A DNA stretch of 64,000 nucleotides from an uncultured Candidatus Saccharibacteria bacterium (lineage in GTDB: Bacteria > Patescibacteriota > Minisyncoccia > Phycocordibacterales > CSBR16-119), in assembly GCA_964531475.1 (NCBI GenBank), contig CAZHCS010000001.1, forward strand, positions 112,739 to 176,738, written 5' to 3'. The stretch's first letter is position 1, and each line of letters begins with the position of its first letter. The translations under genes were made by a program, and so were the position numbers. The notes beneath the pieces were generated by a model. The model made no database searches and was not told the DNA's origin. It worked only from the letters and a program-made list of their open reading frames with translations. Shown one piece after another: positions 15,202 through 46,006 of the stretch.

Positions 15202-15260
15202 GAAGATATTTTATCACCACATACTGAAAATACCTCAACAAGTATTTGTCTTATCCACAA

Positions 15261-15285
15261 CTGGTCGAGGTCGGACCTCGACCAG
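15261..15285. repeat. REP palindrome, family 1 (inverted copy)
   Basis: CTGGTCGAGGTCgGACCTCGACCAG, a 25-bp palindrome 18 nt upstream of the RAYT start. Confidence 0.7.
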
Positions 15286-15302
15286 TTTGTTAAAATTAAT
15301 CT

Positions 15303-15920
15303 ATGACTCGAAAAGATTCCTTTACGACCGGTTATCATTATCACGTTTATAATCGTGGTGTCGATAAAAGAAACATTTTCAAAAGCAAATCTGATTATGC
15401 TCGATTTTTAGACATACTCGAGCGTTTCAATAGTTCCCTAGCTGCAAATAATACGTCACGTGATTCAGTTCGCAAGAGAAAAGAAGACCTATCGTTAGTC
15501 AAAATTCACGCACATTGCTTAATGCCGAATCATTACCATCTTATTTTGGAGCAGCTTGTAGACAATGGGATTTCAAAATTTCTTCAAAAAGTAATGACGG
15601 GCTATACGATGTATTTCAATTTGAAACACGAACGATCAGGCGTTTTATTCCAAGGCAAGACAAAATCAAAACTTATACTAGAGGACGACTATCTCCGTTG
15701 GCTTAAGCAGTACATTGCACTCAATCCACTCGATCTCCATACACCAAATTGGAAAGAAAATGGAATTCAAGATCATAAAAGTGCAATCAATTTTTTGAAA
15801 GATTACGCTTATAGAAGCGAATACGATTATAACGATTGCGACCTTAACGGCTTTATTAAAGAATTACAAGAAGACAACTGGTCGAGGTCCGACCTCGACC
15901 AGGTGCGCGTTGAGAAATAA
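15303..15920 (+). CDS. IS200-like Y1 transposase (REP-associated tyrosine transposase, RAYT-like)
   Basis: HUH motif CLMPNHYHLILE and the catalytic-Tyr helix KQYIALNPLDL. The 3' end of the ORF runs through a REP copy. Confidence 0.8.
   Translation: MTRKDSFTTGYHYHVYNRGVDKRNIFKSKSDYARFLDILERFNSSLAANNTSRDSVRKRKEDLSLVKIHAHCLMPNHYHLILEQLVDNGISKFLQKVMTGYTMYFNLKHERSGVLFQGKTKSKLILEDDYLRWLKQYIALNPLDLHTPNWKENGIQDHKSAINFLKDYAYRSEYDYNDCDLNGFIKELQEDNWSRSDLDQVRVEK
15878..15902. repeat. REP palindrome, family 1
   Basis: CTGGTCGAGGTCcGACCTCGACCAG inside the last codons of the RAYT gene (WSRSDLDQV). Confidence 0.7.
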
Positions 15921-16537: not shown

Positions 16538-17962
16538 CTATTTTGTCAATATTTCCTGGAGTATCTTCAAGGCAAGCTGCGGATTGGCGCTTCCCTTAGA
16601 CTCACGCATAAACTGCCCGACGAGGAATTGGATGGATTTTTCGTTACCGGATTTGTAGTCTAGGGCGACTTTCGGATTGGCGACGATGATGGCTTCGGCG
16701 GTGGCCTTGAGTTTACCTTCGTCGAATTCTTGAATGAGGCCGTGCTCTTTGGCGAAAGTCTCTGGATCGATATCAGCTTTTACGATTTCCGCGATAAGGT
16801 CTTTGGCTCCACGAGAGCTTAGTTTATTGTCGCCGAGCATCTGCATGATTTTCGCAAAGCTTTCTGGTTTCGGGAATTTAAAATCTGCGCCAGCAATCTT
16901 TCGAAGACCATTTAAATCAGACAAAATATAGTTCACTGCTGGTCGAGGTCCGACCTCGACCAGGATTGCTTCGAGAAATTGGATTAATTCAAAATCTGAA
17001 ACGAGAATCTCAACATCCTCATCTTTAATGCCAAGCGCCTTCAGCCTCTCACGCTTCGCAGACGGAAGTTCTGGCAATTCCGCTCGCATCTTTTCAAGAT
17101 CAAACATCTCATGCAAGTACATCTTCGGAATATCTGGTTCCGGGAAGTAACGATAGTCGTGAGAATCTTCTTTCTTCCTTTGTGAAAATGTCGATTGTTT
17201 GTTTTCGTCCCATCCGCGCGTTTCTTGGATAATCTCGCTTCCCTTGCCAGCTTCAAGAAGCGCAATGTGGCGCTTGATCTCGTACTCGGCCGCTTTTTCG
17301 ACAGCTTTGAAAGAGTTTATGTTTTTGACTTCGACTTTTGTGCCAAATTTGTCCGTATCAGAAACAGACAAGTTCAGCTCTACACGCATTTCACCCTTTT
17401 CCATGTTCGCATCAGACACACCGAGGGTTCGGAGAAGTAATTGGAGTTCGCGTCCGAAGTCACCCGCTTCTTTGGCGCTATGAATTACTGGTTCGGTAAC
17501 GAGTTCCATGAGTGGCACACCAGCGCGATTGTAGTCGATGAGCGAAAAGCCCGCCCCGACCGAAGCGTCGGGGTCGCCATCCCTGTGTTTGTTGTTCGCG
17601 GTATCTTCTTCGAGATGCACGCGCGTTACAGCGACACCATTGAGTTTTCCACCAGAAACGATCGGATATTTGTATTGAGAAATTTGGTAGCCTTTCGGGA
17701 TATCCGGATAGAAATAGTTCTTGCGGTCAAATTCGGTGAAGTTCGCGATGTTGGCACCGAGCGCGAGGCCGACTTTGACCACGCTCTCGACGGCTTTCAT
17801 ATTCGGCACAGGCAAAGTTCCTGGATGCGCCATACATACGGGACAAACATTGACGTTTGGCTTTTCCTCGTCGGGATTATTCCGGCACGCGCAAAACATC
17901 TTGGTAGTTGTTTTCAACTCCGCGTGAATTTCTAACCCAATTGTGACTTTGTAATCTTTCAT
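16538..17962 (-). CDS. gatB: Asp-tRNA(Asn)/Glu-tRNA(Gln) amidotransferase subunit B
   Basis: MKDYKVTIGLEIHAEL... GatB N-terminus and a C-terminal GatB/YqeY domain. It contains an in-frame REP copy at 16939-16963. Confidence 0.9.
   Translation of the reverse strand: MKDYKVTIGLEIHAELKTTTKMFCACRNNPDEEKPNVNVCPVCMAHPGTLPVPNMKAVESVVKVGLALGANIANFTEFDRKNYFYPDIPKGYQISQYKYPIVSGGKLNGVAVTRVHLEEDTANNKHRDGDPDASVGAGFSLIDYNRAGVPLMELVTEPVIHSAKEAGDFGRELQLLLRTLGVSDANMEKGEMRVELNLSVSDTDKFGTKVEVKNINSFKAVEKAAEYEIKRHIALLEAGKGSEIIQETRGWDENKQSTFSQRKKEDSHDYRYFPEPDIPKMYLHEMFDLEKMRAELPELPSAKRERLKALGIKDEDVEILVSDFELIQFLEAILVEVGPRPAVNYILSDLNGLRKIAGADFKFPKPESFAKIMQMLGDNKLSSRGAKDLIAEIVKADIDPETFAKEHGLIQEFDEGKLKATAEAIIVANPKVALDYKSGNEKSIQFLVGQFMRESKGSANPQLALKILQEILTK
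16939..16963. repeat. REP palindrome, family 1, embedded in-frame in gatB
   Basis: An identical 25-mer encoding LVEVGPRPA within the GatB linker region. Confidence 0.7.
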
Positions 17963-24745: not shown

Positions 24746-25774
24746 ATGAACGCAATCATCTACGGCATCATCGGTCTCGTTGTCGGACTTATTCTCGTCC
24801 GGCTTTTCCAGTCGCGTAAAAAGTCTGACGACGGCGCGCCGCTTTTCAAAATGCTTGCCGACGAGATGAAAGACCTGCGCCGCACAATGGACGAAAAACT
24901 CCACCAGTCCAACGAATCTATCCGCTACCAGTCGAGCGAATCACAGCGCCTCATCAAAGAGATCACGCGCGAAATAACCGAAGTCAAAGAGACGGGCCGA
25001 CAAGTCATGGGCTTCACCGACCAACTCCAGCAGCTTCAGAATATGCTAAAGAATCCAAAAAGCCGCGGCGTACTCGGCGAGTATTACCTCGAGACACTTT
25101 TAAAAAATACGCTACCGCCTGGCTCGTACCAGATGCAGTATCCTTTTCAAAATGGCGAGATCGTCGACGCGGCAGTCTTTGTCAAAGACAAAATTATTCC
25201 CGTTGATTCAAAATTCTCTCTCGAAAATTATAATCGTATTACCGATGCTGCTGATCCGTCGGAGCGCGATCGCTTGGAAAAACTATTCTTGAACGATTTG
25301 AAAAATCGCATAGTCGAAACAGCCAAATACATCCGTCCGGAACTAAATACGATGGATTTCGCGTTCATGTTCATTCCCCACGAAGCGATTTATTATGATT
25401 TGCTCGTAAACAAGATCGGCGCGATCGGCGAAGATACTGAAAACCTCATCCAACGCGCAGCATCCAAGTACCGAGTCATCATCGTCTCACCGACCAGCTT
25501 CCTCGCGTACCTGCAGACTGTGCTCCAGGGACTCAAAGCTTTGCAGATCGAAGAATCCGCCAAAGAAATCCAGAAGCGTGTCGGCGAGCTAGGCAAGCAT
25601 TTGAAGTCTTACGAGGACTACCACAACAAACTCGGTCGCAATCTTTCGACAGTCGTGAACCAGTACGAACTTTCTGGCAAAGAACTCAAGAAGATCGACA
25701 AAGACGTCTATCGCATCTCTGGCGAAACTGTCGGCTTGGAGCCGCTCGAAATCGAAAAGCCTCGCGAAGACTAG
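24746..25774 (+). CDS. rmuC: DNA recombination protein RmuC
   Basis: N-terminal TM segment and coiled coil, plus the RmuC core (...DFAFMFIPHEAIY...). Confidence 0.8.
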   Translation: MNAIIYGIIGLVVGLILVRLFQSRKKSDDGAPLFKMLADEMKDLRRTMDEKLHQSNESIRYQSSESQRLIKEITREITEVKETGRQVMGFTDQLQQLQNMLKNPKSRGVLGEYYLETLLKNTLPPGSYQMQYPFQNGEIVDAAVFVKDKIIPVDSKFSLENYNRITDAADPSERDRLEKLFLNDLKNRIVETAKYIRPELNTMDFAFMFIPHEAIYYDLLVNKIGAIGEDTENLIQRAASKYRVIIVSPTSFLAYLQTVLQGLKALQIEESAKEIQKRVGELGKHLKSYEDYHNKLGRNLSTVVNQYELSGKELKKIDKDVYRISGETVGLEPLEIEKPRED

Positions 25775-25799
25775 CTGGTCGAGGTCCGACCTCGACCAG
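25775..25799. repeat. REP palindrome, family 1
   Basis: An identical 25-mer starting directly after the rmuC stop codon. Confidence 0.7.
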
Positions 25800-43834: not shown

Positions 43835-44532
43835 AGGCTCTTCTCTATACCCGCATAATTCAAAAATCCAAAAAGCTCGTACGCCCATGTGGTGATACGG
43901 CTAAAGTCGTCGACGAGAAGCAAGACGCCGATGAAGATGAGTATAAGTCCGGCGATTATAGAAAAGATTTTTGATGAGCCGAGACGCACGCGCTTTCCCT
44001 TTTTCATAAAATACGCAATGAGAAGAAACGGCAAGATAAACCCGAGTGCGAAAAATAAAAACAAGTAGAGTGCTTTCGCAACGCTCGTTGCAAATGCTGC
44101 ATAGAAAAATATCCCTGCCAGAATAGGCCCGACACACGGACTCCAACCGAGCGCGATCGAGACGCCGAAGATAAATGCAGAAAACCTCCCCCTAAATATT
44201 TCACGGAGATCCGCTCCAAACAATTGCCCGCGAAAGAATGGTAGATGAAAAACCCCGAGCATCGAAACCCCAAGCACGATGACAAATATCGCACCGATGG
44301 TCTGCAAGACCTGTTTCGCCGGTGCGAGAACATGACCGAGTAGTCCGGCCAATATTCCAAAGATAAGAAATGTCGCCAGGAACCCCGCGCAGAACAAAAG
44401 CGCACTCTTCATCATTCGTTCGCGTTCGCCATGAGACAAATATGCCACAAACCCCGGCACAAGCGGCAAAGTACACGGCGCCAAAAACATGACGATTCCG
44501 GCAATGAAGGCGGTGAGAATATTAATATCCAT
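43831..44532 (-). CDS. ccdA: Cytochrome c-type biogenesis / thiol-disulfide transporter CcdA (DsbD family)
   Basis: 6 TM segments and conserved Cys motifs (LAPCTLPLVPG; WSPCVGPIL). Confidence 0.75.
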   Translation of the reverse strand: MDINILTAFIAGIVMFLAPCTLPLVPGFVAYLSHGERERMMKSALLFCAGFLATFLIFGILAGLLGHVLAPAKQVLQTIGAIFVIVLGVSMLGVFHLPFFRGQLFGADLREIFRGRFSAFIFGVSIALGWSPCVGPILAGIFFYAAFATSVAKALYLFLFFALGFILPFLLIAYFMKKGKRVRLGSSKIFSIIAGLILIFIGVLLLVDDFSRITTWAYELFGFLNYAGIEKSL

Positions 44533-44635
44533 ATAAAAAGTATAGCAAAAAATCCCTTTCTCTTCTGGCGAACTGATTTAGCCGCGCAGCCCCTCTTCCC
44601 TCGCCACCTTCCCACCCTCTAGACAAAAGATCCTC

Positions 44636-44664
44636 CAATATTCAAGGTCGAACCTTGAATATTG
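44636..44664. repeat. REP palindrome, family 2
   Basis: CAATATTCAAGGTCGAACCTTGAATATTG, abutting the RAYT-2 stop codon. Confidence 0.65.
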
Positions 44665-44665
44665 A

Positions 44666-45280
44666 CTAATCTTCATCATCAAGCAACCCAAGCCTTTCAG
44701 CACCACTTAAGTACTTTATATATGGATCATAGTTATCACAGCTTGACCATTGAAAAGTCTTCAGGAATTTCTTCGTCTTTTCAAGCGAAATCACCCTTCC
44801 CCTTTCTCGCCAACCCTTTTCATACAGGTCTACCGGATTGAGAAGAAGGTATGTTTTCACCTGCTTATAATGCAGATCCGATGTTATAAATTTTGATTTA
44901 GTCTTACCTTGAAACAAGACACCGCTCCGTTGATGCCTCTTATTGAAATACATGGTATAGCTCGTCATCACGCGCTGCAAGAATTTTGAAATACCGCCAT
45001 CAACCTTTTGCTCAAGGATGAGATGGTAATGATTAGGCATGAGGCAATAGTCCAATATATCAACTAGCTGCTCGGCCTCCTTGCGCGGACCACGAGACTT
45101 TCCAGAAAGTCGTATGTCGAGATTCTTTTTCACGTTTCCCCGGATTCCTCTATTCAAATATTCGAGAATGAACAAGAACCTTTCGTAGTCATGTTTGTCC
45201 AGAAATGTTTTTCTCTTATCGGTCCCGCGATTATAAACGTGATATCTTTCACCAGTTATAAATGGTTCTCGAAATCCCAT
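44666..45280 (-). CDS. IS200-like Y1 transposase (RAYT-like), second paralog
   Basis: HUH motif CLMPNHYHLILEQ and the Tyr helix KTYLLLNPVDL. It is about 50% identical to the 15303 copy. Confidence 0.8.
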   Translation of the reverse strand: MGFREPFITGERYHVYNRGTDKRKTFLDKHDYERFLFILEYLNRGIRGNVKKNLDIRLSGKSRGPRKEAEQLVDILDYCLMPNHYHLILEQKVDGGISKFLQRVMTSYTMYFNKRHQRSGVLFQGKTKSKFITSDLHYKQVKTYLLLNPVDLYEKGWRERGRVISLEKTKKFLKTFQWSSCDNYDPYIKYLSGAERLGLLDDED

Positions 45281-45292
45281 CCGACCATTATA

Positions 45293-45327
45293 CCCCAGTA
45301 TCCAAGGTTCGACCTTGAATACTGGGG
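45293..45327. repeat. REP palindrome, family 2 (variant)
   Basis: CCCCAGTATCCAAGGTTCGACCTTGAATACTGGGG, 13 nt upstream of the RAYT-2 start. Confidence 0.65.
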
Positions 45328-45463
45328 ACTACGTGTTTGAAACGAAAAAGGCGCCCCGTGTGGAGCGCCTTCCCTTCGTTATTGAACGTATCACTTGAAC
45401 GAAGCAAGTATCTGCTTGATGCGATTACCCTCGCCATCATCGGGTACCAGTTCGATCAGTTGA

Positions 45464-45919
45464 TCAATGACTTGCATCCCAGGCCAGGCCCAGCACAGCA
45501 CTTAATTGATCCTGGATCTGCAAAAGACCTTTCTTTCCCAAACCCTTGAAATCACCTGTGCGGTAGTAGTGATGCATCGGTTTTGCAACCAGTTCGCCTA
45601 CCGTAAGATCCGGCTTCATTGTCAGAACTTTTCTGATACGAGGATCCAGATCGAGGTTGAGATCAGAAATCTTCTTCAAGAAGACGTCTTCTCCTTCACT
45701 GAACAACTTGACATCCGTGCACTTTCCATCCTTTTTCTCATCAAGGAATGGCCTAAGGTCTCGATCGATGTCGACGTAGTCCATGTCGAACATGACATCT
45801 ATACTAGCGCCTGACGACGTATAGCTTTTCGTCTCGCCACCTCGTATCAGTGTTGCAAAAAGCTTTTGAATCACCTGTTTATGAGAATAGGTGATCCTTA
45901 TGGTGAGCTTGTGTGCCAT
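45464..45919 (-). CDS. Hypothetical protein with RpoA-CTD-like helix-hairpin-helix C-terminus
   Basis: The C-terminus GELVAKPMHHYYRTGDFKGLGKKGLLQIQDQL resembles the RNAP alpha CTD. Start taken at MAHKLTI. Confidence 0.4.
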   Translation of the reverse strand: MAHKLTIRITYSHKQVIQKLFATLIRGGETKSYTSSGASIDVMFDMDYVDIDRDLRPFLDEKKDGKCTDVKLFSEGEDVFLKKISDLNLDLDPRIRKVLTMKPDLTVGELVAKPMHHYYRTGDFKGLGKKGLLQIQDQLSAVLGLAWDASH

Positions 45920-45980
45920 TTGTGTGGGTTCTGTTTGTTTAGAATAGATAGTAGCACATAATATATATAAAGTCAATACC

Positions 45981-46006
45981 AAAAAGCCCTTGAATAAAGG
46001 GCTTTT
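45981..46006. terminator. Bidirectional terminator
   Basis: aaaaagccctt-gaataa-agggcttttt. Confidence 0.6.

Follow-up and report, generated by a model that had tools for sequence, protein, structure and literature searches.

In a 64,000-nucleotide stretch of the genome of an uncultured Candidatus Saccharibacteria bacterium (assembly GCA_964531475.1, contig CAZHCS010000001.1, positions 112,739 to 176,738 of the forward strand; hereafter the window), the gene at 44666-45280 on the minus strand, designated RAYT2, encodes a Y1 HUH enzyme of the class of REP-associated tyrosine transposases (RAYTs; REP, repetitive extragenic palindromic) and is bracketed by two copies of one hairpin, designated family 2. 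RAYT2 is probably a vertically inherited RAYT-class nuclease acting on single-stranded DNA (ssDNA), which together with its private, near-perfect bracketing hairpin forms a REPtron-like unit within a large Patescibacteria radiation of such units. This reading is based on the fold and the catalytic motifs of the protein, the hairpin bracket, the co-variation of proteins and hairpins, synteny, the dispersal of a related hairpin family (family 1) in the window and the dispersal of related hairpins in other genomes. To our knowledge, work on RAYT/REP systems has been confined almost entirely to Proteobacteria and a small number of other phyla. In the searchable literature, which leaves out most subscription journals, we found no prior description of RAYTs, of REPs or REP doublets forming hairpins (REPINs), or of work on IS200 hairpins for Patescibacteria or the candidate phyla radiation.

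The RAYT2 protein

The initial annotation, made from the sequence alone, had placed a RAYT-like gene at 44666-45280, and an open reading frame (ORF) of 204 amino acids with an ATG start was confirmed there on the minus strand. The assignment of its product to the Y1 enzymes of the RAYT class is likewise upheld by profile score, motifs and fold. The protein matches the Pfam family Y1_Tnp (PF01797) with 28.9 bits, above the gathering score of 23, and alignment shows an HUH motif (H84-Y-H86) and a catalytic tyrosine, Y144, within the sequence Y144-L-L-L-N148-P149; the wider motifs read PNHYHL, LFQGK and YLLLNP. Across 36 aligned homologs there is no variation at H84, H86, Y144, N148 or P149, a degree of conservation which, at the level of sequence, argues for retained nuclease chemistry. 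The AlphaFold2 model (pLDDT 86, pTM 0.82) has as its top PDB match in Foldseek the E. coli RAYT with a REP hairpin (4ER8_A, E 8.8e-6, TM 0.52/0.63), followed by the TnpA proteins of IS608, ISDra2 and IS200 (2A6O, 2VIC, 2F4F, 2XM3), all of these, 4ER8 included, with a probability of 1.00. Searches of PDB sequences with the single RAYT2 protein and with a 36-sequence profile returned no Y1 structure, so that the match came from the fold search alone. The family is large, with 3,740 representatives of 50%-identity clusters at E <= 1e-10, and the named matches belong to Patescibacteria.

The family-2 hairpins and the surroundings of the gene

Palindromes at the stop codon and upstream of the start codon, as initially annotated, are present at 44637-44665 and 45293-45327. 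The downstream hairpin, CAATATTCAAGGTCGAACCTTGAATATTG, has a perfect 13-bp stem with a loop of 3 nt, which reads CGA on the plus strand, and begins 2 nt past the RAYT2 stop codon; the upstream hairpin, CCCCAGTATCCAAGGTTCGACCTTGAATACTGGGG, has a stem of 16 positions with one mismatch and the loop TCG (plus strand), and it stops 12 nt short of the ATG. As the loops read CGA and TCG, the two copies stand in opposite orientations. When folded as ssDNA, they reach -11.5 kcal/mol (z = -8.7) and -13.6 kcal/mol (z = -6.2), respectively, with none of 200 shuffled sequences as good in either case. The family-2 core CAAGGTNNNACCTTG occurs exactly twice in the 64 kb, against 0.08 occurrences expected.

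The foot of the upstream hairpin is abutted by a -10-like hexamer, TATAAT, read from the sequence at 45287-45292 on the minus strand, 6 nt before the ATG. TATAAT or TATCAT followed by 6-7 nt and an ATG is also found next to the upstream hairpin in the homologous loci L002, L004, L006, L226 and L230, and a TAnnnT box lies 4-9 nt ahead of the start in 48 of 84 family genes, a count that comes without a background rate for comparison. Promoter prediction upstream of RAYT2 called no full sigma-70 promoter with -35 and -10 elements, so that the idea of a leaderless promoter depends on the -10-like box by itself. The position of this box next to the hairpin suggests a leaderless transcript and possibly autoregulation. 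The downstream hairpin was scored as terminator-like on the minus strand, and Rfam gave no match in 44300-45700. Between the upstream hairpin and a neighbouring ORF of 172 amino acids (45464-45982), a GC-rich hairpin followed by a T run (minus strand AAGGCGCTCCACACGGGGCGCCTTTTT) is located at about 45336-45372; the neighbouring ORF thus has a terminator of its own and needs no family-2 hairpin.

Hairpin bracketing and co-variation among homologs

The arrangement was compared in 86 homologous genes for which both flanks were available, comprising 80 more distant metagenomic loci and the closer orthologs. The same 13-mer hairpin core is present on both sides of 64 of these 86 genes, and a matching core on both sides was found for only 1 of 252 control ORFs from the same loci. 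The orthologs L002, L004, L006, L226, L229 and L230, which come from other assemblies and are 55-75% identical to RAYT2, are all hairpin-bracketed. The hairpins of the family have a median stem of 11 bp and loops of mostly 1 or 3 nt, and the foot of the downstream hairpin lies at a median distance of 0 nt from the stop codon. The cores are locus-specific, yet they share the tip R-A-G-G-T/loop/A-C-C-T-Y, with G4 and C10 conserved in 52 of 53 cores.

The co-variation of RAYTs with their hairpins that the initial annotation had envisaged was found: over 53 loci the distance between cores climbs from 1.3 to 7.2 of 13 positions with increasing protein distance, and protein and core distances are correlated with a Mantel r of 0.41, a value reached in 0 of 2000 permutations. 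Moreover, in five contigs with two paralogs (L160, L165, L185, L213 and L223), as in the window, each paralog has a distinct hairpin. It is the maintained complementarity of the stems, together with the fact that both flanking copies are identical, that points to function.

The orientation of the loops is labile. It is swapped (CGA/TCG) between the window and the syntenic ortholog L004, and again (GCGACGC/GCGTCGC) between L197 and L207, two loci that are 86% identical, so that loop orientation flips on short time scales. Inversion of the segment between the flanking hairpins was considered as the cause of the difference between the window and L004 and rejected, since a unit of hairpin, gene and inverted hairpin is symmetric under such an inversion; the swaps resemble a flip-flop of the hairpin tips. 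In another pair of loci, L160 and L175, the DNA of the genes is alignable over only about 157 nt with 71% identity, whereas the flanking hairpins are 94-100% identical over 28-34 nt, which shows that the hairpins can be much better conserved than the genes they bracket.

The co-resident pair RAYT1 and family 1

RAYT2 had been annotated as the second RAYT paralog of this genome, and alignment with the co-resident RAYT1 (15303-15920, plus strand, 205 amino acids) supports this, with 51% identity and an E value of 4e-61. As proposed, each of the two paralogs is bracketed by its own distinct, yet related, hairpin. The family-1 palindrome, CTGGTCGAGGTC[G/C]GACCTCGACCAG, is present in four copies in the window. 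Two of them flank RAYT1, namely the upstream hairpin AACTGGTCGAGGTCGGACCTCGACCAGTT at 15259-15287 and a hairpin in inverted orientation at the 3' end of the gene (15875-15905). The RAYT1 ORF runs through this 3' hairpin to a stop codon at 15920, giving the C-terminus ...EDNWSRSDLDQVRVEK; this is unlike RAYT2, whose stop codon precedes the family-2 hairpin. The two additional copies are away from RAYT1: one (16939-16963) lies within the coding sequence of gatB (16538-17962, minus strand) and the other (25775-25799), which is remote from the RAYT genes, comes directly after the stop of an rmuC-like ORF (24746-25774).

An AGGTC..GACCT core common to both families had been annotated, and this is roughly right; in the aligned cores, TCGAGGTCGGACCTCGA for family 1 and TCAAGGTCGAACCTTGA for family 2, the only differences are a compensatory change of one pair, G:C to A:T, and a single base of the loop.

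The 25-nt palindrome in gatB is in frame and encodes LVEVGPRP. At this site GatB has the same length in Thermotoga, Aquifex and close orthologs (xKV-EPRxxV). A simple insertion of the palindrome was therefore rejected, as no residues are added in comparison with solved structures or close orthologs, and the palindrome must have replaced ancestral gatB sequence. RAYT1 adjoins gatB also in relatives whose GatB is 89-95% identical, as judged indirectly. A different small hairpin, CCCCGAC-GCTTCG-GTCGGGG, accounts for an 8-amino-acid in-frame insertion (PDASVGAG) elsewhere in gatB, at 17554-17573 (minus strand), which is missing from the 95%-identical GatB ortholog P0270 and present in P0271. An 18-mer of this hairpin was also found in two unrelated metagenome loci, L169 (10943-10960) and L199 (942-959), in an open frame encoding PDASVG, and the hairpin may belong to a second family of palindromes able to persist within coding regions.

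Dispersal of the hairpins

Dispersal was observed for family 1 in the window, for one additional copy in the metagenome-assembled genome (MAG) of L004, and for the hairpin family at large. In the homologous loci, which span 617 kb, 23 extra hairpin copies were counted at distances of over 200 nt from the genes, where chance would give about 0.7; this amounts to one extra copy in roughly every 27 kb. On another contig of the L004 MAG, between divergent genes, there is one further copy of the family-2 type (L077, 5097-5127), which matches in 23 of 23 core bases.

A scan of species-representative genomes for KCAAGGTCGAACCTTGR gave at least 119 stretches, at least 80 of them from Patescibacteria; the genome of the window is not among the matches listed. 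Only 5 of the matches listed have a RAYT homolog inside the 8-kb block. Among the same matches, 85 of the 139 core 11-mers in the Patescibacteria stretches form REPIN-like inverted doublets with a spacing of 19-28 nt, and none of the 39 core 11-mers from other phyla does, these being singletons with minimal stems. The core AAGGTCGAACCTT was encountered across Patescibacteria lineages (L027-L145), including Saccharibacteria, Paceibacterota and Doudna-, Kaiser- and Adlerbacteria. Several MAGs have many copies with a genome-specific extended stem, for example those of Adlerbacteria CAIJVL01 (L034, L094, L135 and L144), and in other genomes many of the dispersed copies have a T run behind them. 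The sequence outside long ORFs is enriched in hairpin centres, with 27% of the centres in 10% of the sequence; many centres nonetheless fall inside a crude ORF mask. Viral contigs scanned with a joint family-1/family-2 core gave 17 single matches. In one Saccharimonadia genome (L036, 408-2605), three hairpin copies about 1.1 kb apart are preceded on the 5' side by the same sequence over more than 20 nt (ATATTACACAAAATAACACCTA), which suggests a larger repeat unit in that genome.

Synteny and inheritance

The gene order FtsX-ABC-RAYT-DsbD-VTT is common to the window and L004, the neighbouring proteins being 58-79% and the RAYT proteins 73% identical. Due to this synteny with a 73%-identical ortholog, RAYT2 looks vertically inherited, unlike an active insertion sequence (IS). 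In L230, the upstream side (FtsX-ABC) is as in the window, and L002, L226 and L229 share another conserved context, SmpB-FtsH-RAYT...RecG. The six orthologs (the window, L004, L230, L002, L226 and L229) are 66-83% identical to each other and are not split by context. RAYT2-type genes are thus stable over long periods.

Comparison with known systems and alternative explanations

The closest parallel is provided by the RAYT/TnpA-REP systems (REPtrons) of E. coli and Pseudomonas. Common to both are the Y1 HUH fold, with 4ER8 as the top structural match, the class-2 motif Y...NP, a gene bracketed by its cognate hairpins, the occurrence of the hairpins elsewhere as solo copies and inverted doublets, and apparent vertical inheritance of the RAYT gene. 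Class 2 was defined by Y---NP and class 1, which contains IS200, by Y---Q (Quentin et al. 2018; PMC6006769, Table 1). In genomes with several RAYTs, the paralogs were described as diverged and low in copy number, with a separate hairpin family for each (PMC6006769), and the two genes in the 64 kb of the window conform to this; two RAYT-hairpin pairs in one genome are an already known phenomenon. The hairpins reported here differ from canonical REPs in being near-perfect palindromes with loops of 1-3 nt and with a tip, RAGGT...ACCTY, that recurs across Patescibacteria lineages, and in their low density.

A number of observations weigh against the interpretation of RAYT2 and its hairpins as a REPtron-like unit. 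RAYT2 stays below the cut-off of the NCBIfam RAYT equivalog NF047646 (34 versus 80 bits). Compared at the level of motifs, its set NH[YF]H, FQ and Y[IV]xLNP corresponds to the second motif set in Table 1 of PMC6006769 and resembles that of subclass 2.1 (the TIRYT type), which equals Group 1 of Bertels and in which no REPs were found (Quentin et al. 2018; PMC6006769). The hairpins are devoid of the 5' GT[AG]G tag of canonical REPs, which was present at 5 of 322 hairpin feet, where chance alone would give 7.5; only in the upstream family-2 copy does a GTAG stand 1 nt away from the foot. The orientation of the flanking copies, which only the loop reveals, is mixed (30 inverted and 25 direct pairs), unlike in canonical REPtrons. 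The co-divergence of gene and hairpins is partly a matter of shared descent, as the two are linked, which accounts for part of the Mantel correlation; taken alone, it is no proof of recognition. The existence of two conserved contexts implies at least one relocation, either of the gene unit or of what surrounds it. Finally, the 64 kb contain no family-2 copy other than those flanking the gene; at the family-average density about two extra copies would be expected, which makes a weak but not negligible argument against dispersal. Of the two co-resident RAYT/REP lineages initially annotated, the existence of two gene-hairpin pairs stands, and family 2 is a candidate repetitive REP family, with both of its copies in the 64 kb at the gene flanks.

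In spite of the shared motifs, RAYT2 differs in several respects from subclass 2.1 as described. With 204 amino acids it has no helix-turn-helix (HTH) tail, and Pfam detected Y1_Tnp alone, with no C-terminal HTH-like domain (Bac_DnaA_C, HTH_23 or HTH_28). Its flanks are self-complementary hairpins rather than plain terminal inverted repeats, and copies are dispersed in the Patescibacteria family, whereas subclass 2.1 was reported to be without REP-like sequences (PMC6006769). The nearest annotated relative outside Patescibacteria is a 287-amino-acid "transposase" of a Legionella plasmid, which is 35% identical, has the same motifs and shows weak Bac_DnaA_C/HTH matches in its tail. On the Legionella adelaidensis plasmid (L231), the gene is located between plain terminal inverted repeats of 26 nt (TCTGGAGGGTCAGGCCTTGCCTTTTG, 448-473 and 1418-1443), an arrangement which is of the TIRYT type.

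Three other explanations were weighed. The unit of hairpin, gene and hairpin, about 690 bp in size, could be a minimal autonomous IS of the IS200 type, with the hairpins as its ends and the solo hairpins as remnants of excision or insertion. The tight spacing between hairpins and gene, with gaps of 12 nt at the ATG and 2 nt at the stop, the matches of the fold to the TnpA proteins of IS608, ISDra2 and IS200, and the occurrence of similarly diverged orthologs in two contexts, FtsX-ABC (window, L004, L230) and SmpB-FtsH...RecG (L002, L226, L229), are in favour of it. The HUH/tyrosine fold and hairpins next to the gene are features shared with IS200/IS605 elements in general. We nevertheless consider it unlikely, as RAYT2 has the class-2 motif Y...NP instead of the Y...Q of class 1 (PMC6006769), its two ends have one and the same hairpin, here inverted, and not a left and a right hairpin that differ and are directly oriented, and no tnpB-like partner is found next to the gene. 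In addition, the window contains no multi-copy identical elements and no near-identical duplicate units, the only pair in its 64 kb being the two 51%-identical paralogs with their different hairpins; the divergence of RAYT2 is on a par with that of the housekeeping genes in synteny with it, and conservation in three genomes applies to either context. The possibility that the two palindromes arose by chance or from base composition and have nothing to do with the gene would be in line with the abundance of palindromic terminators in the window, but this explanation has practically no probability left and is refuted by the two matches where 0.08 were expected, by folding z-scores of -6 to -9, and by the same arrangement in the orthologs and in 64 of 86 homologs versus 1 of 252 control ORFs.

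Somewhat less improbable than an IS, though still doubtful, is a purely cis-regulatory or structural role of the hairpins around a fully domesticated protein, the upstream copy serving as operator and the downstream copy as terminator or mRNA stabiliser, neither of them being mobilised, and the hairpins elsewhere being ordinary terminators or binding sites. The contact of the upstream hairpin with the TATAAT box 6 nt from the ATG, a layout shared with the five loci named above, the terminator-like score of the downstream hairpin, the T runs behind many dispersed copies elsewhere and the syntenic, stable locus all agree with such a role. However, an operator and a terminator need not match, and yet identical cores flank the genes far more often than they flank control ORFs; copies within a coding sequence (gatB) and in inverted doublets are hard to explain by regulation alone, and the catalytic HUH and tyrosine residues are invariant. 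A regulatory function can coexist with the REPtron-like unit that we favour.

Proposed function and implications

For the REPtron-like unit of RAYT2 and its hairpins, the following mode of action can be envisaged, in which binding, cleavage, mobilisation and any regulatory role are proposed by analogy. As in the case of E. coli TnpA-REP and IS608 TnpA, RAYT2 would recognise its own hairpin in ssDNA, presumably via the conserved tip R-A-G-G-T/loop/A-C-C-T-Y and the lineage-specific outer stem, and would cut and then rejoin the DNA beside the hairpin. Such cutting and rejoining could place single hairpins and inverted doublets at other sites by copying or conversion, and it could also keep the two gene-flanking copies identical. 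The upstream hairpin, which abuts the -10-like box, may in addition serve autoregulation, and the downstream hairpin at the stop codon may also terminate transcription.

A more far-reaching interpretation, which we put forward tentatively as a possibility rather than an expectation, is that Patescibacteria harbour a very large radiation of subclass-2.1-like Y1 nucleases, each with a private hairpin that has the RAGGT/loop/ACCTY tip, conserved throughout the superphylum, and that these form an active system of ssDNA hairpin copying or conversion. If this were true, a genome of about 1 Mb would harbour several protein-hairpin pairs side by side, and the hairpins would flip their loop orientation from one close relative to the next, form REPIN-like doublets and enter essential genes such as gatB without a change in length, and ssDNA-based copying or conversion of hairpins would be active in minimal, host-dependent bacteria.

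Subclass 2.1 (Group 1) is the largest group of RAYTs, and we know of no DNA partner described for it so far. Our data suggest that in Patescibacteria a branch of this subclass does have cognate hairpins, and the gene-hairpin pairs of Patescibacteria apparently constitute a large, undescribed set. The RAYT1 and RAYT2 pairs of the window represent a minimal contrast, as their hairpins differ in one compensatory base pair and one loop base, and through this contrast specificity of recognition becomes directly testable with two proteins and four oligonucleotides. They also raise the question why ultra-small genomes keep several such gene-hairpin systems.

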